A stretch of DNA of 64,000 nucleotides from the NCBI GenBank assembly GCA_964016885.1, contig OZ024741.1:232190001-232254000 (forward strand), in the 5' to 3' direction. The position numbers and the translations under genes are program-made. The DNA is from Eledone cirrhosa (taxonomy: Eukaryota). A model generated the notes under the pieces. The model had not been told where the DNA came from and did no database searches. It worked only from the letters and a program-made list of their open reading frames with translations. Of the stretch, positions 1 through 46,064 are shown piece by piece. Each line of letters opens with the position of its first letter. Position 1 is the stretch's first letter.

Positions 1-99
1 CTGAATTACGTTCCTAAAATTCAAACAACAAAACGTAAGCGACAACCTTTCGTCATTCGAAACAGAGTACAAAAATATTTCGCACATACAAAACATAAT

Positions 100-1204: not shown

Positions 1205-1297
1205 ATTTAGGCACAAGGGCAGCAATTACTCAGTGCATTACTGGTACTTTATTTTATCGACCCCGTGAGGATGAAAGGCAAAGTCAACCTCGGCGGG
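1205..1297 (-). mobile_element. SINE 3' fragment (octopus OK-like family)
   Basis: CTGGTACTTTATTTTATCGACCCCGTGAGGATGAAAGGCAAAGTCAACCTCGGCGG; same family as the copies at 6345, 19699, 32975, 47003 and 54935. Confidence 0.8.
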
Positions 1298-1451
1298 ATA
1301 TATAATAGAGATAATAACAGAGAAACCTGGCACGATCGTCGTTTGTTTGGCTTTGATTTTTGCTGATCATTGGTATATGACGTTAGTGACTACCTTCAAT
1401 TGGTAGCGAAAGGCCTTCAAAATGTTTCTAAAAACAACCTACACTATATAA

Positions 1452-3456
1452 CACTGGTCAACAAGTATTTTACATCAAGCATATGTCAGGGTGTACTTAG
1501 TGAAATTGTTAATGCTCATTTCAAATATACAATTAGTTTTACATCACGTACAGTTTTCAAGATGAGAAAGTATTTTGGTTTTAGCTCAAGCATTATATAG
1601 AAATTCAAATTAATGACGTATATCAATGTATATTATTTACATCATGGAAACATCTCTTTAAAATAAACTACATGATTCATTGCTGCATATTTCAGATGCA
1701 ATATTTCATCATCTTAAATTAACCAATTAAGTTTTGTCTGATGAAATAGATATTTCAACATCTCAAATTATCCAGTCATAATTGGTCTGATGAAATATTT
1801 CATCATCTCAAATTCAATATAAGTATAACCGTTTGTATCTATTTCCTTACTTCTTTTACAGTGCTAACAATGTCAAGACAGTGTAGAAATCGTCCTGATG
1901 TGCTCTGTTATGTCTGTGGACAATTTATTGCGAAAGCTCAAAAATGTACAATAACACCAGAGATCAAGAAGATTTATAAGCTATACGTTGACTGTCCTCT
2001 TGGAGATCAGGACAAGTTATGGGTACCACAACCACATTTTATCTGCCCAGCTTGCTCAAATGGCTTACGTGATTGGTTCAATAAGTAGAAGTCCGTGCCT
2101 TTTGCCATTCCAATGATATGGAGGGAGCCGAAATACCATTTTAATGACTGTTATTTTTGCAAAGTAAAAGTTACAGGATGTTCTATGAAGAATAAACACA
2201 AAATTATGCATCCCATTTTGGATTCTGCAATGAGAACTGAACCTCACAATGGACGTCGGCTTATTCCAGTTCCACCAAATGATGGTATTCAAACATCAGA
2301 TGATGATGCTGACTGTGACGATGGTGCTGCTGTGGAAGATTACGTGGCTGATGACGATAGCTTTGAACCTCAGAAATTTTCCCAAGCTGAACTGAATGAC
2401 CTTGTCAGAGACCTATCCCTCTCAATAGATAAAGCAGAACTGTTGGCATCAAGACTGGCGTAGAAGTATCTGCTAGAGCACGGTGTTCGTATAACTTATT
2501 TTCGGCAGAGAAATTCTACAAACGTTTTTCTCTGTTGAAGGCCCGCTTTGCTTTTGCAGTATCATCGATGGACACTTTTCGAATATTTAGCACAAAATCA
2601 TGATCCTGTAGAGTGGCGTTTGTGTATTGACTCTTCAAAACGAAGTTTAAAAGTGGTACTTCACCATAATGGTAATCTGAAGCCCCACCCCCACCCCTTT
2701 TCCTATTGCACACTTCGTTCATCTTCATGAATCATATGAGAATATAGAACTTTTATGTCATGCCTATGAATGATACTCATGAAAAATATGTGGAGATTTA
2801 AAAGTCATTGGAATGTTAATGTGAATGCAGTCACGTTTCACAAAATACTGTTGTTTCTTTTCTCTATGGTATAGTCGGGCAACTGACAGACAAGAACATC
2901 ATACAATCCAGGACTGTCTAGCGTCAAGAATACACCTCTTCTAGATCCATGTAATGTCTTATTGCCTCCTTTGCACATAAAGCCTGGACTGATGAAACAG
3001 TTTATAAAGAATAAAAATGCTATGCTAGAGCTATGGAGAAAGAGACCTAGGCTTCTGGAATGACAGTATGCTGGCTGACTACTGCCAGTCACTTTACCGT
3101 GATCAACCAGATCAGTAACACCGCAGGAAATCCCAATCACAATGTTTCTAACTCTGTTGTTCTAACTTTGTCTGTGTCTTTCTGACCCATTTTTTGGTGT
3201 AATCACTCTTTGTACAATGATAGTCATGATTTTTAACTCAATAAATTTATTTAGTTTCTAAAAATAATATGTCCTTATTTATTACGTTAATGATTTCATA
3301 CATACAAATATGTCAATATTTGTATGTATCTACTGAAGAGCTGATACGTGGTGCATACAAATGTAGTGAACATTTGAAATCAGCATGAAACATTAGTCTA
3401 AAATACTTGGTTTGCATACATAATGAGTATAATACATTTAATTTTGTTGACCAGTG
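1452..3456 (+). mobile_element. Chapaev3-like (CMC superfamily) DNA transposon, decayed
   Basis: TIRs CACTGGTCAACAA (1452) and TTGTTGACCAGTG (ends 3456); flanks TAA/TCA resemble a degenerate 3-bp TSD; internal broken transposase. Confidence 0.8.
1870..3010 (+). pseudogene. Chapaev3-type transposase remnant
   Basis: CRNRPDVLCYVCG...LGDQDKLW...MPFAIPMIWREPKYHFNDCYFC...FSQAELNDLVRDLSLS...WRLCIDSSKRSLKVVL; stops and frameshifts. Confidence 0.8.
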
Positions 3457-3520
3457 TCATTAGATATACTCTATGTAAATTCATATACGCATCGCTATTT
3501 CAGAGCACCAACTCAAATCA

Positions 3521-3611
<91 letters not shown>

Positions 3612-3780
3612 CGATATTAATAAATGGAAACTATATTTATAAAACCATATTTATTTCATTATATATATTCCAGGGATACCATATTAATATCGTATATCTA
3701 CTCCAAAAACTTGTCGAGTGCTTTATATCAGTTATAAAAATATTTACTTGTTGTATCCCAACAACTTTAAATAGTACTTT

Positions 3781-3814
<34 letters not shown>

Positions 3815-3942
3815 TGCATCTATGTATGTATTTATGTATGTAGATGAAATCTCTAGACAATTTTAAAATAGTTCGACTGGAAAGTTGCTGCGTGCTGGAT
3901 TTAGATATTGACACGTCTCTTTTATCATTCTTCTATTAACAG

Positions 3943-4140
3943 AGTGGAGGATGCAAGGCTTTTATCTTTCTATTAACTCAGGTCCTAATGGTGAGCTAGT
4001 AACAATGTTTGAAAGTAAAGAGGATGAACACTTAGAAGGACGCATCCCCATTAGATTTGATAAACCATACCTAGCGGATACTGTCACCATCACTAATCTC
4101 CGCGGTCGTATACTTTCTTTGTGTGAAGTTGAGGTTTTAG
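3943..4140 (+). CDS. Host receptor gene, internal exon: C-terminal half of an F-type lectin / F5-8 type C (galactose-binding-like) domain
   Basis: Acceptor ttctattaacag, donor G|gtgagt, phase 1-1, 198 nt; WRMQGFYLS...TVTITNLRGRILSLCEVEVLG matches the LxLCEVEV end of these domains. Upstream exons not found in the window. Confidence 0.8.
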
Positions 4141-5130: not shown

Positions 5131-5191
<61 letters not shown>

Positions 5192-5200
<9 letters not shown>

Positions 5201-5604
5201 TAAAAGGAAAAGAAAATGCTGACAAATTGTTCCCAGTGAAAAATAGTTTAATTAGGAATAAGTAAAAATTAGTAATAGTATTGGTTAGTATTCAGTTTTG
5301 GTTTTAAGTTTTACCGGTTGCGCATTTCTAATGCTTTTCAAAAATAATTTTGAGATAGAGCGCCCGTGATGTTTGCTCTAATCTGCATGTGTCTATGTGT
5401 CTGTGCGTGTCAGATTAGAGCAAACATCACGGGCGCTCTATCTCAAAATTAATTTTGAAAAGCATTAGAAATGCGCAACCGGTAAAGCTTAAAACCAAAA
5501 CTGAATACTAACCAATACTATTACTAATTTTTGTTTATTCCTAATTAAACTATTTTTCACTGGGAACAATTTGTCAGCATTTTCTTTTCCTTTTACCAAT
5601 ATAT
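5192..5604. repeat. Near-perfect long inverted repeat (194-bp arms, 25-bp spacer)
   Basis: 5192-5385 is the reverse complement of 5411-5604 with few mismatches; sits in the (TA)n tract upstream of EGF exon 1. Confidence 0.95.
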
Positions 5605-5634
5605 CATAACTCGTGTGTTACACCTCTATTCTTT

Positions 5635-5674
<40 letters not shown>

Positions 5675-5696: not shown

Positions 5697-5840
5697 AATG
5701 TAAACCCGGATTTTACGGATATTTGTGTGAAATTAATTGTACAGATTGTATAAATACGGCATGTGAAAGTTATTATGGTCTCTGTGATATTGGTTGTAAA
5801 AATGGCTTACCTTGGGATGACGCAATTAAAAGATGTCCAA
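5697..5840 (+). CDS. EGF/MEGF-like exon 1 (ECKPGFYGYLCEINCTDCINTACESYYGLCDIGCKNGLPWDDAIKRCP)
   Basis: tttcacag acceptor, gtaagt donor, 144 nt, phase 1-1, 8 Cys, open frame. Confidence 0.9.
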
Positions 5841-6344
5841 GTAAGTAATATTTTGGTTGGGAAGATATTACTTTTTACATGGTCGTTCTGTAAATGCTGT
5901 TTGTCGGAGGTGTTGGTAGAATGTAGAACGAAATGTCTTGGGGGTACTTGCTCCGTTTCTGTGTCCATCTAGGACTGGAATTGTTTAAGAATTTTGATGA
6001 AATACGTGGTGGCAATATTTGTCTCGGCATTACCAATTCTGAGGTTACATTCTAACATATCCTATCAGGGTGAATTGAGACTAAAGTTTTAACTCAGTTT
6101 ATCTCAGCCTGGCCCTTAATTGCTGTTAGCAGAGTTTATTCTCTTACAAGAATTTGAACATGCCTCTGGTTTCACGATACATTCATTTGTATAACAAGTC
6201 AACTTAGTGACAGGTAAACTTAATCCTTCTCCCAGTTAACAAAAGTCCATGATTTTTTGCTTTCCATTGCGCCTGATCTTCTTCGTAAAGGTAACTCCCA
6301 ACTTAATCTTGTAAGTCCGGGAAACCCTGACATGGCTGACGGAC

Positions 6345-6535
6345 TCTGGTGGATTGGCAGTATCGTTAGAGGGTCGGACGCCATGCTTTGACGCATATAG
6401 TTACAGCCCTTGCCATTCAGAGTTCAAATTCCGCCAAGGTTAACTTTGCCTTTCATCCTTACGGGGTCGATAAAATAAAGTACCAGTAATGCACTGGGTA
6501 ATTGCTGGCCTTGTGCCAAAAGTAGAAACAATTAT
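6345..6535 (+). mobile_element. tRNA-derived SINE (OK-like)
   Basis: A-box-like TGGCAGTATCG, B-box GAGTTCAAATTCC, conserved body ...CCTTTCATCCTTACGGGGTCGATAAAATAAAGTACCAG. Confidence 0.85.
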
Positions 6536-7169
6536 TTGATTAAGCGAAAAGAAGAAATATTTGTTACAAAACATAGCTTACAAAGAGAGCACTCCAGAAA
6601 TCCTCACTATGACAATTACAAGGTCATCTCCTATTAAAAGCAATACACTCTACTTGCATCATACAATTTAGCATATATAGTACATAGAGACGCTAAACCT
6701 AGTAAAATAGACGCTAATTAAATGTATCACCAGCTGAAATTCGGTCTGCTCCTATTTAGTTGCATCTTGGAGACGTTCAAGTCATCACTATAGTCGAAAG
6801 TCGTTAATCTGGTAGACGGAAAATACGGTCAGCCAGGTAGAACGTTCGTTTCGCCATTTTTACTTGCAGTGGTATAGTATACAATCCTTAAATTACTAAA
6901 TATTAGAGATAACTTCTCTAAACATTTGTTTTTTGATTACAATTCACTTATACGATGCGTTCCAACTTACATACATTTTTAAATTTTATATTACTAACCA
7001 TATACAATAATAGATTACGCATAATACTATACATATTTACTTTAAAAATATAATTACATTCACATTCTTAAATTATATGTAAAAAATGCATATATATTAT
7101 TGCTTGATCGATCTTACGCTCATTTATAATTCTATGTCTATATATATAATTAAATAAGATCTATATTCA

Positions 7170-7865
7170 GGCATAATCATTTATGTACCATGTACACGAA
7201 CATGCTAGACAACAACATGACGGTAACATAGACAACATTGTAATTAGAATAATATCTAAACATAGAAATGACCCAGCAGATAGGCAAATCAGAGAGGCCA
7301 GTGAAATAGAAATTAGAAGACCAAGACTAAACAGAAAGAATGAATGGAATAACAACAACAACCATACAACACTGACCTAAGAGAAGTATAAATAAGTAAA
7401 TAAAATAAAATAAATAAATACATACACAAGCACAATAACAACAAGCACATAAACACACACTAGTCACCCATCACACAGCAAACAAAACACTATACACACA
7501 CGCAAACGCATGCGCAAAGAAGACAAAATAAAATAAACAAACAAGCAAATATATAAATAAATATATAGACAGAGTGAAGAAAAATGGCGTAGACATACCA
7601 CACAACAGGAGGAAACGATAACACCACTGACGATGCTGCAGATGTGCAACGAAAGATTTATGATAAACTATATATATGTGTTTGTGTCTATATTGTATCT
7701 GTATTATTTTTGACCGTCGGTCAGTCAATGGCAACATTGAGGACCGAGTAAGTTAGATTACCGATATAAAAGACACACAAGCGAAAAGCGAAACCCAACC
7801 AAACAGTGAGTGTGTTCTGTTATTAATTCTGGCAATATTACACAAATATGACCCTCCCCAAGTAT

Positions 7866-7870
<5 letters not shown>
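7170..7870 (+). mobile_element. Penelope-like fragment (C-terminus of GIY-YIG endonuclease plus 3' repeat)
   Basis: HARQQH...RQIREASEIEIRRPRLNRKNEW resembles the GIY-YIG C-terminus also seen at 51420-51730; its 3' part resembles the reverse complement of 54640-54930. Confidence 0.6.
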
Positions 7871-7924
<54 letters not shown>

Positions 7925-7946
7925 AGTTGTGTATGCTCTTTCGTAG

Positions 7947-8090
7947 GTTGCGAACACGGATTTTATGGATATAAGTGTGAAAAGAAATGTATAGATTGTA
8001 TAGACATGTCATGTGAAACTGATTATGGTGAATGTCTCAAAGGTTGTAACATAGGTATGGATTGGGATGACAAAACTAAAAGATGTAAAG
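7947..8090 (+). CDS. EGF/MEGF-like exon 2 (CEHGFYGYKCEKKCIDCIDMSCETDYGECLKGCNIGMDWDDKTKRCK)
   Basis: ctttcgtag acceptor, gtaagt donor, 144 nt, phase 1-1, open frame. Confidence 0.88.
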
Positions 8091-9709
8091 GTAAGTGAAA
8101 TTTTCGTGGTGAAGATATTACTTTTTACCTGGTCCTCCTATAAACGATGTGTGTCGGCAATGTTGTTAGAGTGTAGAACAAAATGTCTTAGGGTACTTGT
8201 TCCGTTTTCTGCATCCATCTAGGACTGGAATTGTTTTAAAATGTTCATGATATGTGTGGTGGCTATATTTATCTCGGCATTACTCATTCTGAGCTTACGT
8301 TCCAATATATCCTATTAGGTTAACGTGAGACGTAACATTTCACTCTGTTTATCTCAACCTGGCACCTGGTTGTTTTTTGGAGGAGTTTATTCTCTTACAA
8401 GTATTTGCATAAGTCTCTGGTTTGATAATAAATTCATTGGTATAATAAGTCAACTTAGTGATAGTTAAACTTAATCTACTCTCTTAACAAAAGTCCCTAT
8501 TTTTTTTTGGGGGGGGGGGGGCTTTACGGCTGATATTCATTGTAAGGATAACATACAACTTAATATTGTAAGTGCGGGAAACCATGACATGTATCATGGG
8601 CTCTTTCCGTCATGCTTTGATTGAGAGAAAAGAGAAAAAATATGTGGCAAACTAATGCTTATCAAGAGGGCTCCCCAGAAATCATCATTCTCATAATAAA
8701 CTTTTTATCTTCTTTTGAAAGAAATACACTTTACTGGCATCATACAATTTAACATGATTAACACATAGAGTCGCTAAACCTAGTAACTTAGACGCTAATT
8801 AAATGTATCACCATCTGAAATCCGGTCTGCTCCTATCTCAGTTGCATCTTGGAGACGTTCAAGTCATCAGTATTGTTAAATGTCGTTGATTTGGTAGATG
8901 GAAAATATGTTCAGTCAGGAAGGACATTATTTCAGCCATTTTACTTACAGTGGTTGTGATTTACTCTCCACGGAATTCCTCTATTAGTAAACTAGGTTCG
9001 CCAGGTTATCTTGTTTAATATTTCTGATGTACACTAGATAGAACACAATCAGCTTTCTGGCAATGTTTGTTGTGATTTGAGGTCGCTTTGGCATACACAG
9101 TGTAGAGAAGGGCTGGGTCGTATAGACAAATTTTAACATCTGCGCTCATAGTTGATGCTGCGCAAACAAAGCGCATTCACAGGAACACCTTCACGGCCTC
9201 ACCAATACTGCTGATGACGTCCAGTTTTATTGTTGCTATTGTTGGAATACTTCATGCGGTTTCCTAATTTTTGTTGTTGCACACCATAGTCAACTAACCC
9301 AATATTTAGCTGCTACAGATTTGAACTGTTTTCTGTTAAATAGCGAAGTTTACAGACTTTCTCTCCATGGAATTATTTGGCTGGTTCCTCCATGTGACTG
9401 CGTGTCTGTGTGTGTTGGTAAATATATGAGTTTTCAATTGTTATTTAGTAAAGTTTTCGCGCTTGTTTCGTCATGCGCTATCCCTTTGAAAGACAGTATT
9501 TTATAAATCGCTTTATGGTCCAGAGAAAGCTGACGTGGTTTGTGTGCATCTGACAGCCACCTTCTCCCGAAAATCCTTCAGTATTATGAACTTTGGCGTG
9601 AGCTGACCTTATATTGTGCCCGAAAGCTTTCCCCTCTAACACTGTAAAGCTTCAATCGGAGGTAATTCGTATGTATATATTTATGATAGTTGCGTATTCT
9701 CTTTCATAG

Positions 9710-9853
9710 AATGCAAACCCGGATATTACGGATTGAACTGTGTACATAATTGTTCAGATTGTATAGACATGTCATGTGGAAATGTTAATGGTGAGTGTCA
9801 CCTTGGTTGTAAGCCAGGAAAGCAATTGGATCTAGATTCTAGTAAATGTAAAG
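9710..9853 (+). CDS. EGF/MEGF-like exon 3 (ECKPGYYGLNCVHNCSDCIDMSCGNVNGECHLGCKPGKQLDLDSSKCK)
   Basis: ctttcatag acceptor, gtaagt donor, 144 nt, phase 1-1, open frame. Confidence 0.88.
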
Positions 9854-11400
9854 GTAAGTGAAATTTTCGTTGGGAAGATCTTACTTTTTAACTGGTCATT
9901 CAATAAATACTGTGTGTCGGAAGTGTTGTTAGAGTGTAGGACAAAATGTCTTTGGGTACTTGTTCCGTTTTCTGTATCCATCTAGGACTCAAATTGCTTA
10001 AGGATTTGGACGACATTTGTGGTGGCAATATTTGTTTGGTTTTACGCATTCGGAGCTTACATTCCAATAAATCCTATTAGAATAAAGTGATAAGTAGACT
10101 TTCACCCCGTACATCTCAACCCCGCTCTTAGTTGCTTTTAGCAGAGTTTATTCTCTTGCAATTAATTGAACATGGCTCTGGGTTGAAGATACATTCATTG
10201 GTATGACTAGTCAACTTAATGAGAGTTAAACTAAATCCTTCTCTAGGATAACAAAAGTCCCTGATTTTTTTAGTTTGTTTGCGGCTATTCTAATCTGTAA
10301 TGATAAATTACAACTTAATCTTGTCCGGTAAACATCGACATAGATGATGGGCTCTATCCTTCATGCTTTGATTAAGCGAAAAGAAGAAAAATATGTGGCA
10401 AATAGCTTATAAAGAGGGCTCCTCAGAAATCATCTCTCTGATAATATAATTCTCATCTTCTTTCGAAAGCAATAGACTTTACTTGCATCATACTATTTAG
10501 CATACATAATACATAGAGACGCTAATACTAGTAAAATAGACACTAATTAAATGCATGGCCAGCCGAAATTTGGTCAGCTTTTATATCTGTTGCATTATGT
10601 CTTTGATCTGTTAGACGGAAAATACGTTCAGCCAGGTAGAACCTTCGTTCCGCCATTTTACTTAGAACGATTGCGATTTGCTCTCCACGGAATTTTTTTT
10701 ATTTTTAAACGCGGTTTGCCAGTTGATCTTTTGTAATCTTTCTCAGCCAAAATTGATGGAGCACATTCAGCTTTCTGGAAATCTTTGCTGTTTTCAGGTC
10801 GCTTTAGCATACACAGTTGTGTGGAGAACGACTGTGTCGTAGAGACAAAGTTTGACCCTGAGCAAACAAAGCGCATACATTGAAATACCATCACAGCCTT
10901 TCCAATACTGCTGATGACGTGCAGTTCATTGTTGCTTTTGTTGGATCACTTCACTGCGGCTTCATTAAATGGTGCGGTTTCCCACCATCAGCAACTAACC
11001 CAATATTTTGCTGCTGCAGATGTGAACTAGTTCCTGATATTAAGGCGATGTTGACAGACTTGTGTGTGCTCTACATGGAATTCATTTGCTGGTTACACCA
11101 TGACCGTGCGTGTTGGTGCATATATGAGTTTTTAATTGTAATTAAGCAAAAGTTTCGCGCTGGATTAGGCATACGCAATCCATTTGAAAGACACTATATT
11201 ATACATCCGTTTATTGTACGGGGAACGCTGAAGTGGCTTGTGGCAGCCTCCTCTACTGGAAAACCCTCAGTAATCATGAACTTTGACATAAGTTGATTTT
11301 TATTGTGCCCGAAAGCTATCCCTTCTAACATTGCAAATCTTCAATCCTAGGATATCTATATATGTATATGTTTGTGATAAATGTGTATTCTCTTTCACAG

Positions 11401-11544
11401 ACTGCCCACCCGGATATTACGGATTGAAGTGTGCAAATAATTGTACAGATTGTATAGACATGGAATGTGAGAATTATATTGGTAAATGTGTAAAAGGTTG
11501 TCTCAAAGGTATGGGTTGGGATGACGAAATTGAAAGATGTGAAG
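11401..11544 (+). CDS. EGF/MEGF-like exon 4 (DCPPGYYGLKCANNCTDCIDMECENYIGKCVKGCLKGMGWDDEIERCE)
   Basis: ctttcacag acceptor, gtaagt donor, 144 nt, phase 1-1. Confidence 0.9.
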
Positions 11545-13124
11545 GTAAGTGAAATTCTCGTTGGGAAGATATTACTTTTTATCTTGTGGTTCTATAAATG
11601 ATGTGTCGGAGGTGTTGGTAGAGTGTAGAACAAAATGTATTGGTGTACTTGTTCCATTTTCTGTAACCTTCTACGACTGGAATTGTCTGATAATTTTGAT
11701 GACATGCGTGGTGGCTATATTTGTCTCGGAATTACGCATTCTGAGCTTCACATTCCAATATATCGTATTAGGGTAAAGTGAGACGTCAAATTTCACTCCG
11801 TTTTTCTCACCCTCGCCCTTGGTTGTTTTTTGAGGAGTTTATTCTCTTACAAGTATTTGAATAAGTCTCTGGTTTGAAGATAAATTCATTGGTATTCCAA
11901 GTCAACTTAGTGATAGTTAAATTTAATCCTCTCTGTTAACAAAAGTCCCTGATTTTGTTTAGTTACTTTGCGGCTCATCTTCACTGTAAGGATAACATAC
12001 AACTTAATCTTGTAAGTCCGAGAAATCATGACATGGATCATGGGCTCTATCCTTCATGCTTTGATTAAGCGAAAAGAAGAAAAATATGTTGCAAACCATA
12101 GTTTATCAAACGGTTCCCCCAAAATCATCAATCTGATAATATAATTTTCATCTCCTTTTGACAATTTAGCATAATTAACACATAGAGTCGCTAAACCTAG
12201 TAACAGATACTAATTAAATGTATCTCCATCTGAAATTCGGCCTGGTTCTATTTCAGTTGCATCTTGGAGACGTTCAAGTCTTCACTATTGTTAAATGTCG
12301 TTGATTTGGTAGATGGAAAATATGGTCAGCCAGGAAGAACCTTATTTCAGCCATTTTACTTATAGTGGTTGTGACTTTCTCTCCACGGAATTCTTCTATT
12401 AGTAAACTAGGTTCGCCAGATTATCTTGTTTAATATTTCTGAGGTACACTTGATAGAACACATTCAGCTTTCTGGAATTCCTTGCTGAGATTTCAGATCG
12501 CTTTGGCATACACAGTGTGGAGAAGGGCTGGGTCGTATAGACAAAGTTTGACATCTGCGCTCATAGTTGAGGCTGAACAGACAAAGCGAATTCACTGGAA
12601 CACCTTCATCGCCTCACTAATTCTGCTGATGACGTCCAGTTTTATTGTTGCTATTGTTGGATAACTTCACTGCGGCATCCTAATTGTTGCTGTTGCCCAC
12701 CATTTTCAACTAACTCAATATTTAGCTGCTACAGACCTGAACTGTTTTCTGCTAAGTTAGCAAAATTTACAGACATTCTCTCTATGTTTTTCATTGGCTA
12801 GTTCCACCATGTGTCTGCATGTTTGTGTGTGTTGATGCATATTTGAGTTTTCAATTGTTATTTATTAAAGTTTTCGCGCTTGTTTAGTCATACGCTATCC
12901 CTTTGAAATACAGTATTTCATAAATCGTGTTATGGTCTAGAGAACACTGAAGAGGTGTGTGTGTATTCTACAGCCCACTTCTCACGAAAATCCCTCAGTA
13001 TTATTAATTTTGACGTGAGTTGACCTTTTATTGTGTCCGAAATCTATCGCTTCTAACCTTGCAAAGGTTCCATCGTAGGTTGTTTATATATATATTTATG
13101 ATAGTTGTGTATTCTCTTTCACAG

Positions 13125-13268
13125 GATGCAAACCCGGATATTACGGATTGGAATGTGCAGAACGTTGTACAGATTGTGAAGACATGGCATGTGATAAGTA
13201 TACTGGTAAATGTGAAAAAGGTTGTATCAGCGGTATGGTTTGGGATGACGTAATTAAAAGATGTGTAG
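13125..13268 (+). CDS. EGF/MEGF-like exon 5 (GCKPGYYGLECAERCTDCEDMACDKYTGKCEKGCISGMVWDDVIKRCV)
   Basis: ctttcacag acceptor, gtaagt donor, 144 nt, phase 1-1. Confidence 0.9.
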
Positions 13269-13278
13269 GTAAGTGAAA

Positions 13279-13404
13279 TTACGGATATATGTGTGAATAT
13301 AATTGTAGATTGTCTAATCATCTCATGTGGAAGTTTTAATGGTGAGTGTCACCTTGGTTGTAAGTTAGGAAAGGAATAGGATAAAACTTTTAGTAAATGT
13401 AAAG
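13279..13404 (+). pseudogene. Dead EGF exon copy (exon-3 type) lacking its acceptor
   Basis: Begins about 10 nt after the exon 5 donor; 5' end and acceptor deleted; frameshift and a TAG; donor gtaagt retained. Confidence 0.85.
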
Positions 13405-14957
13405 GTAAGTGAAATTTTCGTTGGGAAGATCTTACTTTTTAACTGGTCACTCAATAAATACTGTGTATCGGAAGTGATGTTAGAGTGTAGGACAAAATGT
13501 CTAGGGGTACTTGTTCCGTTTTCTGTATCCTTATAGGACTGAAATTGCTTAAGGATTTGGACGACATTTGTGGTGGCAATATTTGTCTGGGCTTTACGCA
13601 TTCTGAGCTTACATTCCAATATATCCTATTAGAATAAAGTGATAATTAGACTTTCAGCTCGGTTATCTCAACTCGGCCCCTGGTTTCTTTCAGTAATTAT
13701 TTGAACATGGCTCTGGGTTGAAGATACATTCATTGGTATGACTAGTCAACTTAATGAGAGTTAAACTAAATCCTTCTCTAGGATAACAAAAGTCCCTGAT
13801 TTTTTTAGATTGTTTGCGGCTAATCTACTCTGTAATGATAAATTACAACTTAATCTTGTCCGGTAAACATCGACATAGATGATGGGCTCTATCCTTCATG
13901 CTTTGATTAAGCGAAAAGAAGAAAAATATGTGGGAAATAGCTTATAAAAAGGGCTCCTCAGAAATCATCTCTCTGATAATATAATTCCCATCTTCTTTTG
14001 AAAACAATAGACTTTACTTGCATCATACTATTTAGCATACATATTACATAGAGACGCTAATACTAGTAAAATAGACACTAATTAAATGCATGGCCAGCCG
14101 AAATTTGGTCAGCTTTTATATCTGTTGCATTATGTCTTTGATCTGTTAGACGGAAAATACGGTCAGCCAGGTAGAACCTTCGTTCCGGCATTTTACTTAG
14201 AACGATTGCGATTTGCTTTCCACGGCATTTTTTTTTATTTTTAAACGCGGTTCGCCAGTTGATCTTTTGTAATCTTTCTCAGCCAAAATTGATGGAGCAC
14301 ATTCAGCTTTCTGGAAATCTTTGCTGTGTTTTCATGTCGCTTTAGCATACACAGCTGTGTGGAGAACGACTGTGTCGTAGAGACAAAGTTTGACATCTGC
14401 ACACATAGTTGACCCTGAGCAAACAAAGCGCATACATTGAAATACCATCACAGCCTTTCCAATTCTACTGATGACGTGCAGTTCATTGTTGCTTTTGTTG
14501 GATCACTTCACTGCGGCTTCATTAAATGGTGCGGTTTCCCACCATCAGCAACTAACCCAATATTTTGCTGCTGCAGATGTGAACTAGTTCCTGATATTAA
14601 GGCGATGTTGACAGACTTGTGTGTGCTCTACATGGAATTCATTTGCTGGTTACACCATGACCGTGCGTGTTGGTGCATATATGAGTTTTTAATTGTAATT
14701 AAGCAAAAGTTTCGCGCTGGATTAGGCATACGCAATCCATTTGAAAGACACTATATTATACATCCGTTTATTGTACGGAGAACGCTGAAGTGGCTTGTGG
14801 CAGCCTCCTCTACTGGAAAGCCCTCAGTAATCATGAACTTTGACATAAGTTGATTTTTATTGTGCCCGAAAGCTATCCCTTCTAACATTGCAAAGCTTCA
14901 ATCCTAGGATATCTATATATGTATATGTTTGTGATAAATGTGTATTCTCTTTCACAG

Positions 14958-15101
14958 AATGCCCACCCGGAAATTACGGATTGGAGTGTGCAAATATATG
15001 TATAGATTGTGTAGGTGTGGAATGTGATAGTTATATTGGTAAATGTGAAAATGGTTGTTTCGAAGGTATGGGTTGGGATGACGAAATTAAAAGATGTGGA
15101 G
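14958..15101 (+). CDS. EGF/MEGF-like exon 6 (ECPPGNYGLECANICIDCVGVECDSYIGKCENGCFEGMGWDDEIKRCG)
   Basis: ctttcacag acceptor, gtaagt donor, 144 nt, phase 1-1. Confidence 0.9.
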
Positions 15102-15869
15102 GTAAGTGAAATTTTCGTTAAGATATTACTTTTTACTTGGTCGTTCTATAAATGCTGTGTGTCGGAGGTGTTGGTAGAGTGTAGAACAAAATGTCTTGGG
15201 GTACTTGTTCTATATTCTGTAACCATCTAGGACTGGAATTGTTTAAGAATTTTGCCGACATGAATGGTGGCTCTATTTGTCTCGGCATTACGCATTCTGA
15301 GCTTACATTCGAATATATTATATTAGGGTAAAGTGAGACGTCATATTTCACAGCTGTGTGGAAAACGATTGTGTCCTATAGACAAAGTATGACATCTACA
15401 CTCATATTTGAGCCTGAGAAAACAAAGCGCATTCACTGGAACACGTTCACAGCCTTTCCTATTCTGTTGATGACGGTCAGTTCATTGTTGCTATTGTTGG
15501 ATCACTTCACCGTGGCTTCCTAAATGGTGCTGTTGCCCACGATCAACAAATAACCCAGACTTGAATGTTCTCTCCATGGAATTCATTGGCTTGTTCCACC
15601 ATGCCCGTCCGTGTCTATGTGTGTTGGTGCATATATAGGTTTTTCATTGTAATTTAGGAAAACATAACGCTTGTATATGCATAGGCAATTTAATTTGTAC
15701 ATCGATTTTTAGTCTAGAGTAAGCTGACGAGGTTTGTTTATATCTGACAGACTCCTCTCGAAAAACGCTCAATAATTATGAAATTTGACCGTTGACCTTT
15801 TATTGTGCTCGAAATCTATCCACAGTAACATTTCAAAGCTTTCATCGGAGGGTCTCTGTATATATATAT

Positions 15870-17304
15870 ATATATAAACAATGAGTTATTTGGTTTGTTG
15901 ATTATTCAACAAAATTAATTTTACAATAGATTAGAAGCACTCAACAGTTTTATCCGGAGCATCATTAATATCAATGATATTAATAAATGGAAAATATCTT
16001 TATAGGACCATATTTATTTTACTATACGTATTTCAAGGTTACCTATATTTAAGGGCGCTTTGGTCAGATAAAATATAATAATTGGTGTTAAGATAGTGAC
16101 ATATCTTAATGTGAACAGCATGTTATAAGTTCAGTGAAGATAGTGAAGATAATTTTTTGTAAACTCAAGAGGAATATACTAATGAGGATAACGTTAAAAC
16201 TGAAAAGATCCGTTAATTTTAGACTAGATAAATTGAAAATATTTATATACTTTGTTAAAAAAAGTGTGCCATTAAATTTGAAAATGTTATTGTAGAGTTA
16301 TTTTTAAAATAATTATTTAGTACATAAAGTATTATGCGTGAATATAGATCTTATTTATGTATATATATAGAAATAGAATTATAAATGACCGTAAGATAGA
16401 TCAAGCAATAATATATATGCATTTTTTACATATACTTTAAGAATGTGAAAGTAATTATATTTTTAAAGTAAAGATGTATAGTATTATATATAATCTATTA
16501 TTGTATATGTTTAGTAATATAAAATTTAAACATTTATGTAAATCGAAATGTATCGTATATGTGAATTGTAAACAAAACCATCTTTTAAGGGAAGATAATA
16601 CTAATATTTAGTAATTCAAGGAATCTACACTATAGATATGTAAAATATATTGTTTTATCTAATGTTTAACATAATAATTAATTTTAATTTATATTATAAG
16701 ATAAGTAAACATTTCTATACGAGTTTAGAGCACCATATAGTAAATATGGTGTTGATAATAATAAATAATTAAATATGTATATGTATAAACTTTGATAATA
16801 ATAAATATTTCTATGTATAAATTTGATGATAAGAAATATTTCTATGTATACATTTAAGAACATTTAAAGACAACCAAAAATATATACTGTACATAGGCAA
16901 CCTATATAGACCATACTGTAGTAGCTTCTATGTATTATAAATATTCTGAAATGTTCTGAAGAATCGATGCAAACAAGAATTAAATATTTCTCTTTTTTTT
17001 TTTGTTAATAATATTACCAGGATTGGTAATGATATGAAAGATTTCTTCAATACAGAGATGACAAATTCTTGAGAGAGCCATATTTTAGTAAAGTGGTAAA
17101 ATGCATCGATTCTCCAGAACATTTCACAATATTTATAATTAGGTTAAACATTAGATAAAACAATATATTTTTAAATATCCATACTATACATTCCTTAAAT
17201 TACTAAATATTAGAGTTACCTTCCCTTTAAATATTTTTTGTTTACAATTCACATATACGATACGTTCCAACATACATAAATGTTTAAATTTTATATTACT
17301 AAAC
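15870..17304. mobile_element. AT-rich inserted repeat with internal inverted repeats (unclassified, possibly Penelope-derived)
   Basis: Interrupts a duplication unit at its (TA)n tract; about 16505-16670 is inverted at 17140-17303; about 16332-16630 is inverted at 6875-7176. Confidence 0.55.
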
Positions 17305-17896
17305 ATGTCATATAGACAAAGTTTGACATCTGCGCTCATAGTTGAGGCTGAACAAACAAACCGCATTCACTGGAAAACATTCAGCGCCTCACCAATACTG
17401 CTGATGACGTCCAGTTTTATTTTCCTATTGTTGGAATACTTCACGCGGCTTCCTAATTGTCGTTGTTGCCCACCATTGTCAACTAACCCAATATTTAGCT
17501 TCGGATGTGAACCCTTTTCTGCTAAGATGGCGTAGTTTACGGACTTTCTCTCCATGGAATTCATTGGCTAGTTTCACCATGTGTCTGCATGTCTGTGTGT
17601 ATTGGTGCATATATGAGTTTTCAATTGTTATTTAGCAAAGTTTTCGCGCTTGTTTAGTCATACGGTATCCCTTTGAAAACAGTATTTTATAAATCGTGTT
17701 ATGGTCTAGAAAAAGCTGAAGAGGTGTGTGTGTATCTGCAGCCTCATTTTCCCGAAAATCCTTCAGTATTATGATCTTTGAAGTGAGTTGACCTTTTATT
17801 GTGCCCGAAAGCTATCCCTTCTAACCTTGCAAAGCTTCCATCGTAGGATATCTGTATATATATATATTTATGATAGTTGTGTATTCTCTTTCACAG

Positions 17897-18040
17897 AATG
17901 CAAACCCGGATATTACGGATTCAACTGTGCAAATAATTGTACAGATTGTGTTGACAGGGTATGTGATAAGTATATTGGTAACTGTGAAAAAGGTTGTATC
18001 AGCGGTATGATTTGGGATGAAGAATTTATAAGATGTGTAG
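17897..18040 (+). CDS. EGF/MEGF-like exon 7 (ECKPGYYGFNCANNCTDCVDRVCDKYIGNCEKGCISGMIWDEEFIRCV)
   Basis: ctttcacag acceptor, gtaagt donor, 144 nt, phase 1-1. Confidence 0.9.
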
Positions 18041-18050
18041 GTAAGTGAAA

Positions 18051-18179
18051 TTACGGATATATGTGTGAATATGATTGTACAGATTGTCTAAATATGTCAT
18101 GTGGAAATGTTTAATGGTGAATGTCACCTTGGTTGTAAGATAGGAAAGGAATGGGACGTAGATTTTAGTAAATGTAAAG
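18051..18179 (+). pseudogene. Second dead EGF exon copy lacking its acceptor
   Basis: Same fused junction GTAAGTGAAATTACGGA as at 13269; +1 frameshift (GTT TAA); donor degraded to gtaaat. Confidence 0.85.
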
Positions 18180-19366
18180 GTAAATGAAATTTTCGTTGAG
18201 AAGATCTTACTCTTTAACTGGTCGTTCAATAAAGGCTGTGTGACGGAAATGTTGTGAGAGTGTAGAACAAAATTATTGGTGGGGGGGGGGGGGGGGGGGT
18301 GAGTGTTCCGTTTTCTGTATCAATCTAGGACTGAAATTATTTAAGGATTTTGTCGACATGCGTGGTGGCAATATTTGTCTCGGAATTACGCATTCTGAGA
18401 TTACATTCCAATATATCCTATTAGAGTAAAGTGATAATTAGACTTTCACCCTGTTTATCTCAACCCGGCCCATGGCTTCTTTTAGCAGATTTTATTCTCT
18501 TGCAATTATTTGAACATGGCTCTGGTTTGAAGATACATTCATTGGTATAACAAGTCAACAGAAAATACGATAAGCTAGGTAGAACATTCGTTACGCCATT
18601 TTACTTAGAACGATTGTGATTTTCTCTCCACGGCATTTTTTTATTTGTAAACGAGGTTCACCAGTTGATCTTGTGAAATATTTCTGGGCCAACTTTGATG
18701 AAGCACATTTAGCTTTCTGGAAATATTTGCTGTGTTTTCATGTCGCTTTAGTATACACAGCTGTGTGGAGAACGACTGTCACGTATAGACAAAGTTTGAC
18801 GCCTGCACTCATATTTGAGCCTGATCAAAGAAAGCGCATTCACAGGAAAACCTTCACAGCCTTTCCAATTCTGCTGATGACGTGCAGTTCATTGTTGCTT
18901 TTGTTGGTTCACTTCACTGCGGCTTCATTAAATGGTGGTGTTTCCCTCCATCACCAACTAACCCAATATCTTGCTGCCACAATTTTGAACAAGTTCCCGC
19001 TATTAAGGCGATGTTGACAGACTTGTGTGTTCTCTCCATGGAATTCATTTGCTGGTTCCACCATGACCGTGCGTGTTGGTGCATAAAGAAGGTTTTACTT
19101 GTAATTTAGCACAATTTTTGCGCTAGATTAGGCATACGCACTCCCTTTGAAAGACACTATTTTGTACATCAGTCTATGACCCGGAGAACGCTGAAGCGGC
19201 CTGTGGCAGCCTCCTACTCCCAGAAAACCCTCAGTAATCATGAACTTTCACATAATTTAATTTTTGTTAATCCCGAAATCTATCCCTTCTAACCTTGCAA
19301 AGCTTCCATCGTAAGATATCTATATATGTATATATATTTACGATAAATGTGTATTCTCTTTCACAG

Positions 19367-19510
19367 GATGCCCACCCGGATATTACGGATTCAAGTGTGT
19401 AAATAATTGTACAGATTGTTTATACATGAAATGTGATATTTTTATTGGTAAATGTGAACAAGGTTGTATCGAAGGTATGATTTGGGATGACGAAATTGAA
19501 AGATGTCAAG
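19367..19510 (+). CDS. EGF/MEGF-like exon 8 (GCPPGYYGFKCVNNCTDCLYMKCDIFIGKCEQGCIEGMIWDDEIERCQ)
   Basis: ctttcacag acceptor, gtaagt donor, 144 nt, phase 1-1. Confidence 0.9.
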
Positions 19511-19698
19511 GTAAGTGAAATTTTCGTTAAGATATTACTTTTTACCAGGTCGTTCTATAAATGCTGTGTGTTGGAGGTTTTGGTAGAGTATAGAACAAAA
19601 AGTATTGTGGTAGATGTTCCGTCTTCTGTATCCATCTAGGACTGGAATTGTTTAAGAATTTTGACGACATACGTGGTGGCATTATTTGTCTCGGCATT

Positions 19699-19890
19699 GG
19701 ATGGCAGGTGGATTGGCAGTATCGGTAGAGGGTCGGACGTCATGCTTTCCAGCATAGTTACGTCCCTTTACGATCTGAGTTCAAATCCAGCCGAGGTTAA
19801 CTTTGCCTTTCATCCTTACGGGGTCGATAAAATAAAGTACCAGTAATGCACTGGGTAATTTCTGGCCTTGTGCTAATAGTAGAAACAATT
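19699..19890 (+). mobile_element. tRNA-derived SINE (OK-like) with 18-bp TSD
   Basis: Flanked by ATTATTTGTCTCGGCATT at 19681-19698 and 19888-19905; other units show the empty site. Confidence 0.9.
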
Positions 19891-20439
19891 ATTTGTCTCG
19901 GCATTACCCATTCTGAGCGTGCATTTCAATATATCCTATTAGGCTGAATTGAGACTAAAGCTTTCACTCAGTTTATCTCAGCCTGGCTCTTGGTTGCTTT
20001 TAGCGGAGTTTATTCTCTTACAACAATTTGAACATACCTCTTGATTCACGATACATTCATTTGTATAACAAATCAGCTTAGTTATAGTTAAACTTAATCC
20101 TTCACTCAGTTAACAAAAGTCCCTGATATTTTGCTTTCCGTTACGTCTGATCCTCTTCGTAAGTGTAACTCCCAACTTAATCTTCTAATCCGGAAAACCC
20201 TGACATGGATGACGGGCACTATCTTTCTTTATTTGATTAAACGAAAAGAAGAAAGGTTTGTTGCAAACCATAGCTTATGAAGAGAGCTCCCCGGAAATCA
20301 TCACTCAATAACACCTCCTATTGAAAGCAATACACGTTACTTGCAGCATACAATTTAGCATACATAGTACATAGAGACGCTAAACCTAGTAAAATAGACG
20401 CTAATTAAATGTATCACCAGTTGAAATTCGGTCTGCTCC

Positions 20440-21005
20440 TATTTTAGTTGCATCTTGGAGTTCATGTCATCACTATTGTCGAAAGTCGTTAATCTGGTAG
20501 ACGGATAATACGGTCAATCACGTAGAACGTTTGTTCAGCCCTTTTTACATGCAGCGGTTGTGATTTGCTCTCCACGGATATTTTTATTTGTAAACAAGGT
20601 TCGACAGGTGATCTTTTGAAATTTGTTTGAGGTCCCTTTGATGGAACACATTCAGCTTTCTGGCAATCTTTGCTGTGTTTTCAGGTCGCATTGGCATACA
20701 CAGGTGTGTGGATAACTACTGTGTCGTACAGGCAAAGTTTGACAACTGTACTCATAGTTGAGCCTTAGCAGACAAAGCGCATTCACTGGAAGACTTTCAC
20801 CGCCTTTCTAATACTGTTGATGACGTCCAGTTTTATTGCTGTTACTGTTGGATCATTTCACTGCGGCCTCCTAATTGGTGTTGTTGCCCAGCATAGTCAA
20901 GTAAACCAACATTTAGATGCTACAGATTTGAACTAGTTCCTACTATTAAGGCAACGTTGACAGATATGTATGTTATCTCCATTGAATTCATTGGCTGTTT
21001 CTACC
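20440..21005 (-). mobile_element. Antisense RTE-clade LINE relic (representative copy; homologues near 8830-9650, 10600-11330, 12250-13070, 14140-14890, 15350-15850, 17305-17840, 18560-19310)
   Basis: Minus-strand translation across frameshifts gives DVINSIRKA..VF, VKLCLYDTVV..PVYANAT*K, KLNVFHQR..KQI..., which resembles the RT C-terminal region of RTE LINEs. Confidence 0.7.
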
Positions 21006-21009
21006 AACA

Positions 21010-22400
21010 ACTCTTTTAAAACCAACATTAGCAACCAGTAGTACAAGAGGGAACAGGGGAAGCACTCTTGGATTGGTTCTCAAACAATGTTATCTTAGTC
21101 CGTTGTTCCAGGCATATAAAGTTGCTTAAAAATGGTTAGTGGGAAACTACATAATAGAACAATGCTTCAGGGTCATTTTCTTGGCACACTATCAAATGCT
21201 TTCTAGAACTCGATGATACTAAAACACTAGTGGTTTCAGATATCCGATACAGTGTTAAATGATGCTAGTCAGAATGAACATTTGATCAAGGAATATGCTG
21301 TTGTTTCAAAAGGCAATAAGTACTTCCCATTGGACAGAATCTACAGCATGGTGTAGTATTCTAAGTAGCAGTGTGCAGAACAATTTGTATGGGATCAAAA
21401 AATGTGATCTCTCGTCAGTCTTCGCAAGCTACCAGATTACCCTTTTTTAGTAACTTTCTAATAATCACTTGTTTACTCTCCGTGGATAGTGGCCCTTAAT
21501 TCCAGCAGTTGTACATCAGCTTGGTCATTGCTGAAATTATTCTGCTGTCATCAAACTTCAAAAGCTTTTTTGAGTTCTCATTCAATCCAACAGATTTGTT
21601 ATTCTTCAAAGAATTTAGTGAAATTATCATCTCCCTTACTATAATTGTTTCCCTGGCAGGCATACAGAGGTGTGTCGACTGCTGGTGTATAAAAGCTGAA
21701 TTCAAACAAAGTAACTGTGGCTGGCTAGTTTATCTCCTGGAAGTGTTCGATCCATCTATATCTTGCTCTTTACTTGTCACCAGCCTTTAAATTCTTTTCA
21801 TTTATTGTCATGCTCACATTTCATCAGACGCCTGTTAACTCTCTTACAGTATTACACATGGTTATTGATTCATTTCCATCCGCCCCTTCCTCAGCCTCCG
21901 TGCACGTTTTCCCTCGCGAGGGCAATTTATTTCGACTCATTATGCAGCATCTGTTTTTCCTTCGTTTCACTTCTTGCTATGTCCCTTAAGAATTTTTGCC
22001 TTCAATCTTCAATCGATTAATTCCAAAACTGTTCGCAGAGGCACGGCTCTCATTTTGATCACCTTCGTCTCTTATATAGGGGTTTACTATTCTTGAGTCT
22101 CACCCTCACTGCAGCTCACTGCAAATATTAGACTGATCCAATGTGTCCCCCACTGCACAACCTGACATCCGACAGCATTAATTTATATTAATGTAGTCGT
22201 TTCCCATGCAAGAATTCCTCTCCGCTGACTGCAAGATTATTTTATGTATGAGTACGTGCCGGAAATAGGATTAGCAAATTCTGTGGTTGTTGATGTAGCA
22301 GAAAAACAGCACGAGTCCTCCGTTATCTTTGTCTGCTGGGCAGAACCTAACGGTACGATGACACGGTATTACTGAAGCCCATATTCACGAGTCACCTATA
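21010..22400 (-). mobile_element. Decayed LINE (RTE-like) RT/EN fragment truncating the last duplication unit
   Basis: Minus-strand LKNNKSVG motif and IEF*KAFDSV (about 21190-21220). Confidence 0.65.
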
Positions 22401-30354: not shown

Positions 30355-30445
30355 TGTCAAATTCCGCGGCTATGGTGAAGATATTTGTAATTGGATTGTT
30401 GCTGATCCTCTGTCTCCTTGGAATGGGGTTAATGTACTTATTCTG
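30355..30445 (+). CDS. Host receptor gene, transmembrane exon (VSNSAAMVKIFVIGLLLILCLLGMGLMYLFW)
   Basis: ttctctttgatcag acceptor, TG|gtatgt donor; phase 1 in (matches the EGF exons), phase 2 out; hydrophobic stretch of about 22 aa. Confidence 0.8.
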
Positions 30446-31469: not shown

Positions 31470-31671
31470 GAAGAAAAGACGCGGAGTAATGGAAGGAGAA
31501 GAAGAAGAAGAAGAAGAATGGGACGATGAAGAAGAAGAGGAAGAAGAAGAACATGATGAAGAAAAAGAAGTTGAAGAAGAAAAAGAAAAAGAAAAAGAAG
31601 AAGAAAAAGAAAAAGAAAAAGAAGAAGAAAAAGAAAAAGAAGAAGAAGACGGAGGAGAATCAACACATTAA
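31470..31671 (+). CDS. Host receptor gene, terminal exon: WKKRRG stop-transfer signal and Glu/Lys-rich cytoplasmic tail
   Basis: gtttcag acceptor; phase-2 join TG+G gives Trp, then KKRR directly after the TM helix; in frame with ORF 31489-31671 to TAA. Confidence 0.8.
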
Positions 31672-45910: not shown

Positions 45911-46064
45911 TTAGGTGTTATAATGTTACGATGACCCAACTTCAACGCCAAATATTAAATGATGTCGATTTTTAACACGAGGAATACTCGAGGTGATTCG
46001 CGACCAATCAGAAGTTCTTTTATTTTTTATTCAAATCTATAAGTACCGCTCTTTTGTATTGACC

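Follow-up and report, generated by a model that had tools for sequence, protein, structure and literature searches.

Results

A probable lectin-EGF receptor gene with eight uniform EGF-like exons

The window, a 64,000-nucleotide stretch of the Eledone cirrhosa genome (contig OZ024741.1, positions 232,190,001 to 232,254,000), holds part of a gene whose 5' portion lies beyond it: the last 65 residues of a lectin domain, eight EGF-like exons (E1 to E8), predicted transmembrane (TM) and tail exons, and the remains of further exon-intron units (Table 1).

Table 1. Features of the lectin-EGF locus, in positions of the window
Feature	Positions	Strand	Remarks
F5/8-type C / fucolectin-like domain exon, C-terminal third	3943..4140	+	ends LSLCEVEVL, phase 1 donor
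EGF-like exon E1	5697..5840	+	144 nt, phase 1-1, 8 Cys
EGF-like exon E2	7947..8090	+	144 nt, phase 1-1, 8 Cys
EGF-like exon E3	9710..9853	+	144 nt, phase 1-1, 8 Cys
Intron stretch ~98% identical to 13757-14957	10222..11400		ends at E4/E6 acceptor
EGF-like exon E4	11401..11544	+	144 nt, phase 1-1, 8 Cys
EGF-like exon E5	13125..13268	+	144 nt, phase 1-1, 8 Cys
Dead E3-like copy	13278..13404	+	9 nt behind E5 donor, acceptor absent, 2-nt deletion, GTAAGT donor intact
EGF-like exon E6	14958..15101	+	144 nt, phase 1-1, 8 Cys
Shortened unit intron, downstream exon missing	15102..15876		followed by AT-rich high-copy insertion
EGF-like exon E7	17897..18040	+	144 nt, phase 1-1, 8 Cys
Second dead E3-like copy	18050..18179	+	behind E7 donor, junction as at E5, 1-nt insertion
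EGF-like exon E8	19367..19510	+	144 nt, phase 1-1, 8 Cys
Ninth unit intron without exon	19511..20997		homology to other unit introns
Predicted stalk and TM exon	30355..30445	+	phase 1-2, hydrophobic run
Predicted cytoplasmic tail exon	31470..31671	+	KKRR stop-transfer, then Glu/Lys-rich GAA-repeat stretch, then stop

The uniform length and phase of the EGF-like exons, on which the first-pass annotation had built, are borne out by the coordinates and by an AG acceptor and a GTAAGT donor at 8/8 exons; with phase 1 introns on both sides and a length divisible by three, all eight are class 1-1 exons. The further claim that any subset of them would keep the reading frame between the lectin and TM exons also holds, since all 256 of the 256 subsets reach the same stop when 3943-4140, the subset, 30355-30445 and the tail from 31470 are joined in silico, and E1-E8 joined in the same way have no stop codon at a cross-exon junction. 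The splice contexts, described in that annotation as near-identical, are fairly but not exactly so: the mean difference between exons is 14% over the acceptor region (-25 to -3) and 5% over the donor region (+3 to +12), compared with 25% for the exons themselves. This likeness is to be expected, since whole exon-intron units were duplicated, with a unit period of 1470-2939 nt and 74-92% likeness between units. The encoded modules retain 8 Cys in 8/8 cases and share 16 invariant columns out of 47 in an alignment of the eight products, and the modules of Octopus relatives have the same register. A model of the 47-residue module reached pLDDT 72.7 and pTM 0.42. Judged from DNA and homology, all eight exons are likely to be spliced.

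The best matches to both the lectin exon and the modules are Octopus proteins. The lectin exon product shares 39-44% of its residues with the lectin domains found in three FTP/MEGF proteins of Octopus, with BLASTP E values against Octopus proteins of 1e-12 to 9e-7 in a small database; two of these carry PF00754/PF22633, and the product falls in an Atlas F5/8 type C cluster (0.92). A galactose-binding/fucolectin-like domain thus precedes the repeats, as read from BLASTP on its last 65 residues. A Pfam scan of nine exon products returned no EGF family and no lectin family, a homologue search with the lectin exon as sole query gave 0/18 candidates, and tblastn revealed no earlier lectin exon in 1-3942. 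The residues of the F-type lectin motifs (HX24RXDX4(R/K) for fucose and h2DGx for the cation, as given in PMC5712786) belong to exons upstream of the window. The module profile matches molluscan MEGF10/SCARF/RPTP-like proteins (23 hits), human SCARF1 (8hna_B, E 1e-4) and, weakly, Tie2, and the modules fall in Atlas laminin-EGF/PEAR1L clusters (0.91), identifying them as MEGF10/SCARF/Tie2-type EGF-like repeats. Foldseek and VIA-align gave no significant match for the 47-residue model, a comparison that is uninformative for so small and disulfide-rich a domain. The gene is thus likely to be an octopus member of the molluscan single-pass SCARF/MEGF10-like lectin-EGF receptors; we found no paper on it among the titles and abstracts of the open-access literature.

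Of the Octopus proteins compared (XP_052834032.1, annotated 'MEGF10' in O. bimaculoides, XP_014769031.1 and XP_029645473.2), the first consists of a lectin domain, two long-loop EGF modules, a TM segment and a PTP domain. The Octopus relatives share with the present gene the lectin C-terminus, the 8-Cys module with its 12-residue, Trp-bearing last loop (at best 25/47 residues identical), a module placed directly after LCEVE, and a short stalk, TM segment and KKR; they differ in having 0-2 modules of this kind rather than eight and in lacking the acidic tail, and no PTP exon was found in the window by tblastn. The TM exon would be linked to the array across a 10.8-kb last intron that contains transposase-like ORFs. 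The start of the tail exon, W-KKR, matches O. bimaculoides relative P0206, and Tyr is absent from the Glu/Lys-rich stretch of the predicted tail. The tail appears to be short and acidic, and we therefore propose a receptor without phosphatase output.

Duplication, loss and probable recombination of whole units

In addition to the eight intact exons, the array contains two dead copies and two exon-less units that were not part of the first-pass annotation. Reading through from E5 into the first dead copy leads to a stop after two codons, and the donor of the second is degraded to GTAAAT; DNA contigs covering 18043-18520 match the second copy without differences in 2/3 runs. The junctions behind E5 and E7 are identical over 30 nt and have the same 3-nt ATT microhomology, and block homologies of 84-92% each span two exons. 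Whole exon-intron units have been duplicated, and one deletion junction has been copied twice. No additional exon was found by tblastn in the exon-less unit 19511-20997.

The nearly identical introns upstream of E4 and E6 share a 311-bp exact match (at 10911 and 14468, a spacing of 3557), and the likeness ends at the exon border, with 3 mismatches in the 300 nt upstream followed by 18 within the 144-nt exon. On its sequence, this pair is a recent conversion or crossover tract. We infer that homologous introns recombined, by unequal crossover and by gene conversion, and that this caused the changes in the array. As history, the intronic unequal crossover that had been proposed at the outset is thus supported by the block duplications, the shared dead-copy junction and the ~98% identical 1.2-kb intron pair; the in-frame length alleles expected from it in living populations would be an extension of that history. 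On these sequence grounds, the copy-number idea appears better supported than that of alternative splicing. Among contigs from one DNA sample (three runs, covering 7925-21100, with E1 outside), the 15 contig joints listed of 389 all touch a SINE at 19707-19893, which dominates the tables of joints and loose ends; of the 11 groups of variants, six have no matching unit within the window.

Amino-acid diversification of the modules

What is new relative to the earlier account is that pN exceeds pS across the array, in 28/28 exon pairs, which are not independent of one another. Five codon models put omega at 2.1-2.7, with 2dL against omega = 1 of 5.3 (GY) and of 9.1 and 8.6 (MG), and the pooled pN/pS of 1.99 was matched by 1/150 neutral and 0/150 Cys-constrained simulations. 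The excess stems partly from a low pS (0.00-0.11 among E4-E8), and pN is close to the divergence of the flanking introns. Between E3 and the second dead copy, pS is 0.12 and pN 0.16; values for E3 against the first dead copy and for the two dead copies against each other were left out because the 2-nt deletion misaligns the rows. Conversion among copies violates a single-tree model and can inflate omega. With this caveat, the excess of amino-acid over silent changes suggests diversifying selection.

Discussion

How the array may be spliced

On balance, we consider it probable that duplication of one exon-plus-intron unit left a SCARF/MEGF10-like receptor with eight intact phase 1-1 exons, which have diversified and which are by default joined one after another in the transcript. 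Exchange among the homologous introns, through unequal crossover and gene conversion, would multiply, delete and homogenise the units; all eight exons would be included by default, with occasional skipping, to form a long cysteine-rich stalk, and alleles differing in module number would be present in the population. Glycan binding would fall to the N-terminal lectin, while the modules would determine reach and offer variable surfaces. By analogy, the receptor may have an immune function at a host-pathogen or self/non-self interface.

Default inclusion is likely, as argued from the annotation of related genes and from the absence of mechanisms for exclusion. In O. bimaculoides XP_052834032, two long-loop modules are present per chain in 3/3 records covering the region (annotated models), and all 150 of the 150 profile matches listed have at least three matched stretches, a count biased by the adding of scores over repeats. 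The annotations also record variation: isoform X1 of C. gigas LOC105345149 differs from X3/X4 by one 46-aa module (annotated skipping), and an O. vulgaris model is without a long-loop module that is present in its near-identical O. sinensis counterpart. The symmetry of the exons, which the first-pass annotation had taken to allow combinatorial splicing, does permit skipping, but class 1-1 modules ordinarily have it (PMC3927616), and it is therefore not evidence for alternative splicing.

That combinatorial cassette skipping is instead the main mode, with tissues or cells making a ladder of module numbers and sets as bindin does, seems to us unlikely. Every subset is in frame and bindin offers a precedent, and skipping of one module is annotated in the oyster relative; this is one of four isoform sets compared, however, and the isoforms of the other three have alternative 5' ends or differ elsewhere than in the EGF repeats. 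A pair of inverted repeat arms (258 nt, 91%) around E2-E6 could loop these exons out, but the arms are high-copy repeats and one of them has a closer local partner. The low pS may reflect exonic splicing constraint; the consensus GTAAGT donors (8/8) and pyrimidine-rich acceptors of E1-E8, on the other hand, argue against regular skipping. Dscam-like mutual exclusion, with one module per transcript and a short receptor drawing on eight alternative variable domains, is harder to credit, and we hold it quite unlikely. The tandem homologous exons of equal length and phase, with their duplicated introns, provide a setting able to create competing RNA structures (PMC6071210), the copies are strongly diversified, and the 0-2 long-loop modules of the nearest Octopus relatives are the pattern that a choice of one in eight would mimic. 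The other known enforcers of exclusion are steric hindrance (<50 nt), U2/U12 mismatch and frame shift with NMD (PMC5740500); the array has none of these, its introns being at least 1326 nt long (the shortest has this length) and all GTAAGT..AG with U2-type donors, and its exons all 144 nt. A docking-like helix did not rise above shuffles in 3/3 and 16/16 settings, in a weak test without a positive control that covered ungapped helices of 12-20 pairs shared by 4 or 6 of the 7 introns, with repeats masked, in one species. Dscam-like exclusion thus draws no support from these DNA-level tests, themselves weak, of frame, intron length, U12 sites and docking helices. In addition, each exon apparently corresponds to a whole module, so that jointly included modules should fold, and the O. 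bimaculoides relative carries two modules in one chain. Two candidates were set aside: a hairpin at 5135-5670, considered as a docking element, folds strongly but has both arms in one intron, and seven equal-length S. cucullata RPTP isoforms, considered as a precedent for exclusive exons, differ in their phosphatase domains rather than in EGF repeats.

A broader proposal, in which one or a few of the eight positively selected modules per transcript would make up a lectin receptor repertoire that recombination in the introns keeps renewing, a cephalopod counterpart of Dscam and bindin built on a different fold, we regard as improbable. Very improbable, finally, is that the array is a by-product, either a decaying or loosely constrained spacer, moulded by duplication and gene conversion, with an artefactual omega excess or a set of exons to whose transcript the TM and tail exons do not belong. 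The closeness of pN to intron divergence, the tolerance of dead and lost units, the long last intron with its transposase-like ORFs and the GAA repeat of the tail would fit such a view. Against it, 8/8 exons remain in frame, with every Cys and both of their splice sites intact, while frame shifts have occurred in 2/2 acceptor-less copies, the observed pN/pS is seldom reached under neutral simulation, and the TM-tail junction matches that of the Octopus relative.

Relation to known receptor systems

A parallel in architecture is offered by the Biomphalaria lectin-EGF-TM receptors, which, as described in the available accounts, combine a galactose-binding/fucolectin domain, Tie2/MEGF10/SCARF-type EGF repeats, one TM segment and a small tail, and lie in genome regions of variable structure that have been linked to resistance against parasites. 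They belong to another mollusc class, and in these accounts their variation is described between genes or haplotypes rather than as a selected exon array within a gene; within-gene variation is little described there. With its young, alignable units, dead copies and diversifying-selection signal, the present locus therefore offers a clean test case for changes of length and surface in mollusc recognition receptors. If its exons were alternatively chosen, cephalopods would have a way of diversifying receptors in addition to those named in a 2026 review, which gives FREPs in molluscs and the splicing of Dscam in arthropods; if not, the locus would be an ordinary EGF stalk, expanding and under selection.

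Like arthropod Dscam1, the array consists of diversified paralogous exons in tandem that share one length and phase, in a predicted single-pass receptor; it differs in its EGF-like rather than Ig modules and in that no docking-selector signal was found. Neither conversion nor positive selection is reported for the paralogous Dscam exons in PMC3236188 (omega 0.26, at low power), whereas here omega exceeds 2 and a recent intron conversion tract is present; the tract is a further point against Dscam-like exclusion. Class 1-1 modules in general, with phase 1 introns on both sides, are duplicated and deleted by intronic unequal crossing-over and may be lost by exon skipping (PMC3927616); the mechanism would be the same here, with duplications so young that the introns still align.

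The analogy with Pacific oyster bindin, drawn in the first-pass annotation, is apt for the F-type-lectin context, the tandem repeats, the intronic recombination and, given the conversion caveat, the positive selection among repeats, but is otherwise loose. According to PMC5712786, bindin is an acrosomal sperm protein in which the lectin domain itself is repeated, alternative splicing determines the number of repeats per mRNA (1-5), and recombination takes place within an intron that interrupts each lectin domain midway; here, an EGF-like module is repeated and a TM segment is predicted. A microsatellite lies upstream of each bindin repeat exon (PMC5712786), and its counterpart in the present array is short TA runs.

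An in-frame array of duplicated EGF-like exons

The first-pass annotation had placed eight EGF-like exons (E1–E8) between a lectin exon and a transmembrane (TM) exon and had held that any subset of them splices in frame. Both points were confirmed: each exon is 144 nt long, lies between AG and GTAAGT, and opens directly after the AG with two bases that close a phase 1 codon, and when the lectin exon, every subset of E1–E8, the TM exon and the tail exon were joined in silico, 256/256 subsets reached one stop, with a predicted product inside the window of 162 + 48n residues (n being the EGF modules included). The exons share the pattern C-x8-C-x3-C-x2-C-x4-C-x6-C-x3-C-x12-C, with 16 of 47 columns invariant and pairwise amino-acid identities of 38–70%. 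Eight copies of such exons are far beyond chance; they are alike because whole exon-plus-intron units of 1.5–2.9 kb were duplicated.

Features of the window
Feature	Position	Remark
Lectin exon	3943–4140	+ strand
E1–E8	5697–5840, 7947–8090, 9710–9853, 11401–11544, 13125–13268, 14958–15101, 17897–18040, 19367–19510	+ strand
TM exon	30355–30445 (predicted)	+ strand
Tail exon	31470–31671 (predicted)	+ strand
GAA-rich repeat	31492–31649	within tail exon
Dead E3-like copies	13278–13404, 18050–18179	behind E5 and E7
Units without their exon	15102–15876, 19511–20997	
Stop-free frames, 144 codons	10862–11293, 14419–14850	introns 3 and 5
Inverted copies of high-copy repeat	6873–7188, 16320–16634	either side of E2–E6
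Local partner of second arm	17169–17306	
Foldback element, MITE-like	5135–5670	194-nt arms 98% complementary; −367 kcal/mol, z −45
SINE-like repeat	1188–1299, 6348–6538, 19701–19895, 32965–33158, 47001–47191, 54952–55124	six copies
Transposase-like frames	25900–28120	last intron; − strand ORFs 26624–27364, 27258–27833
Degenerate stretches	1860–3150, 21000–21960	second adjoins ninth unit's end
Long open frames	43534–45972, 47990–48397, 56141–57324	
35-bp tandem repeat, satellite-like	59723–64000	at least 122 copies, 94% match; continues past window end

The gene's 5′ end lies beyond the window. A profile of the module matched proteins from molluscs under the names MEGF10, SCARF, draper or RPTP (F5/8-type C domain in 11/23) and, among solved structures, SCARF1 (E = 1e-4). 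At an E cut-off of 0.001 there were 804 representative relatives; among the 150 listed, the best single-module match is an Octopus protein (25/47 residues identical), and the best lectin matches are Octopus proteins as well (39–44%), which makes the window probably octopus DNA. The nearest architecture, O. bimaculoides XP_052834032, comprises a lectin, two long-loop modules (EGF-like, with a 12-residue last loop), a short stalk, TM, KKR and a phosphatase, whereas the gene in the window carries eight modules, with a predicted tail that is short and acidic. This Glu/Lys-rich cytoplasmic tail, predicted from the GAA-rich repeat, is without tyrosine, where the Octopus relative runs on into the phosphatase domain; tblastn found no phosphatase exons in the window. 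Two results count against a tidy family label: a Pfam scan of nine exon products matched neither EGF nor lectin families, and fold searches with an AlphaFold model of the module (pLDDT 72.7) gave zero matches. The open-access literature yielded no published work on this octopus gene. In S. cucullata, seven equal-length RPTP isoform models (proteins P0015, P0025–P0032) are pieced together from two paralogous sets of phosphatase exons; they could be annotation chimeras, or the alternative 3′ ends could be real.

Repeated change in unit number

The two dead copies, which have frame shifts and no acceptors, each begin 9 nt past a donor. The 30 nt at the junction are the same in both, and donor flank and exon start have a 3-nt ATT microhomology there; the simplest reading is a single deletion, later copied in the duplication of a two-exon block. 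Block homology is 85% between 12532–13750 and 17307–18559 and 92% between 9722–11796 and 13275–15351. Over a 1.2-kb stretch, intron 3 is about 98% identical to intron 5, and 311 bp of the two match exactly at a spacing of 3557 bp. The likeness stops at the acceptor: the final 300 intron bases hold 3 mismatches, the exon 18. To judge from these dead copies, block duplications, lost exons and near-identical introns, the array has gained and lost units more than once and still offers a substrate for doing so; crossover in the 311-bp match would gain or lose two modules with the frame kept. Such duplication and loss is known behavior of class 1-1 modules (PMC3927616), and the array works like any of them. 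The interpretation in the first-pass annotation stands in part: past copy-number change via homologous introns is borne out by the block duplications, the copied junction and the 98% intron pair, and the alternative splicing it allowed for is less probable, as set out below. The stop-free frames in the same two introns are probably due to chance in duplicated sequence.

In DNA contigs from three runs of one sample, all 30 of 30 bins had depth. Of 40 listed variant rows (165 further), 16 lay in high-copy repeats and were set aside, and the other 24 form 11 sets. Among the rows listed, 5/11 sets agree with a different unit of the window and 6/11 with none, pointing to either a second, divergent allele or a paralogue.

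Selection on the exons

Nonsynonymous exceed synonymous differences in 28/28 exon pairs (which are not independent), with 15 vs 0 for E4–E8 and 17.5 vs 0.5 for E5–E7. Codon models, on only 47 codons, gave omega of 2.1–2.7; relative to omega = 1, 2dL was 5.3 (GY+F3X4) and 9.1 and 8.6 (MG). In simulations on the exon tree under a GTR model fitted to the introns, the pooled ratio of 1.99 was attained in 1/150 neutral runs, 0/150 with Cys fixed and 0/150 with all 16 invariant residues fixed. Omega can be raised spuriously where copies recombine. Moreover, pN about equals flanking-intron divergence, with pS lower than that divergence among E4–E8, so exon-centered conversion or synonymous constraint contributes. 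These caveats notwithstanding, the substitution pattern says that selection acts on every one of the eight exons at the protein level, and it suggests a module surface meeting a variable ligand. Phase symmetry is the lesser point; what deserves following is the signal of selection, together with the recent recombination tract.

In combining repeats, intronic recombination and positive selection the gene resembles bindin, but in bindin the lectin is the repeated part and splicing is demonstrated (PMC5712786), whereas here the EGF-like module is repeated. Dscam differs in that no conversion or positive selection was detected among its paralogous exons in a low-power comparison (PMC3236188). Schistosome-resistance regions of snails are filled with related lectin-MEGF genes (PMC12297450).

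Inclusion, skipping or exclusion of modules

All eight exons are probably included by default. Frequent combinatorial skipping seems unlikely: one of four isoform sets compared has an annotated one-module skip (C. gigas LOC105345149), an O. vulgaris model is without a module that its O. sinensis counterpart has, and the inverted repeat pair around E2–E6 predicts an E1-to-E7 skip, but kin have modules annotated in series (two per chain in 3/3 O. bimaculoides records). An isoform repertoire drawn from the eight selected modules is a still more doubtful prospect, and that the array is a by-product is the least credible reading, with very little probability.

We consider mutually exclusive choice improbable. 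The closest Octopus relatives carry only 0–2 long-loop modules, and competing structures can arise when introns duplicate along with exons (PMC6071210), as exclusion would have it; against it, the enforcers listed in PMC5740500 are absent, there being no frame shift, a shortest intron of 1326 nt and U2-type sites throughout. A scan for ungapped helices (repeats masked, bulges disallowed, no positive control), which covered two unit introns, the intron upstream and the full length of the last one, found no docking-type helix common to most unit introns above shuffles in 3/3 and 16/16 settings; protein-mediated exclusion would escape such a scan.

The inverted pair around E2–E6, one arm of which has a second, local partner, could favor the E1-to-E7 skip or a circular RNA. 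The dead copies' donors are GTAAGT, intact, at 13405 and GTAAAT, decayed, at 18180; putative use of either would bring a stop two codons past the exon and a TM-less or NMD product.

Other elements in the window

Our use of the labels SINE, MITE, transposase-like and satellite is presumptive and follows how the repeats behave. Presumably, the long open frames are fragments resembling non-LTR or Penelope-type retroelements; the degenerate stretches resemble DNA-transposon remnants. The DNA contigs reach very high depth over one SINE-like copy (19707–19893), and the near-perfect foldback element sits in a TA run immediately upstream of the E1 acceptor.
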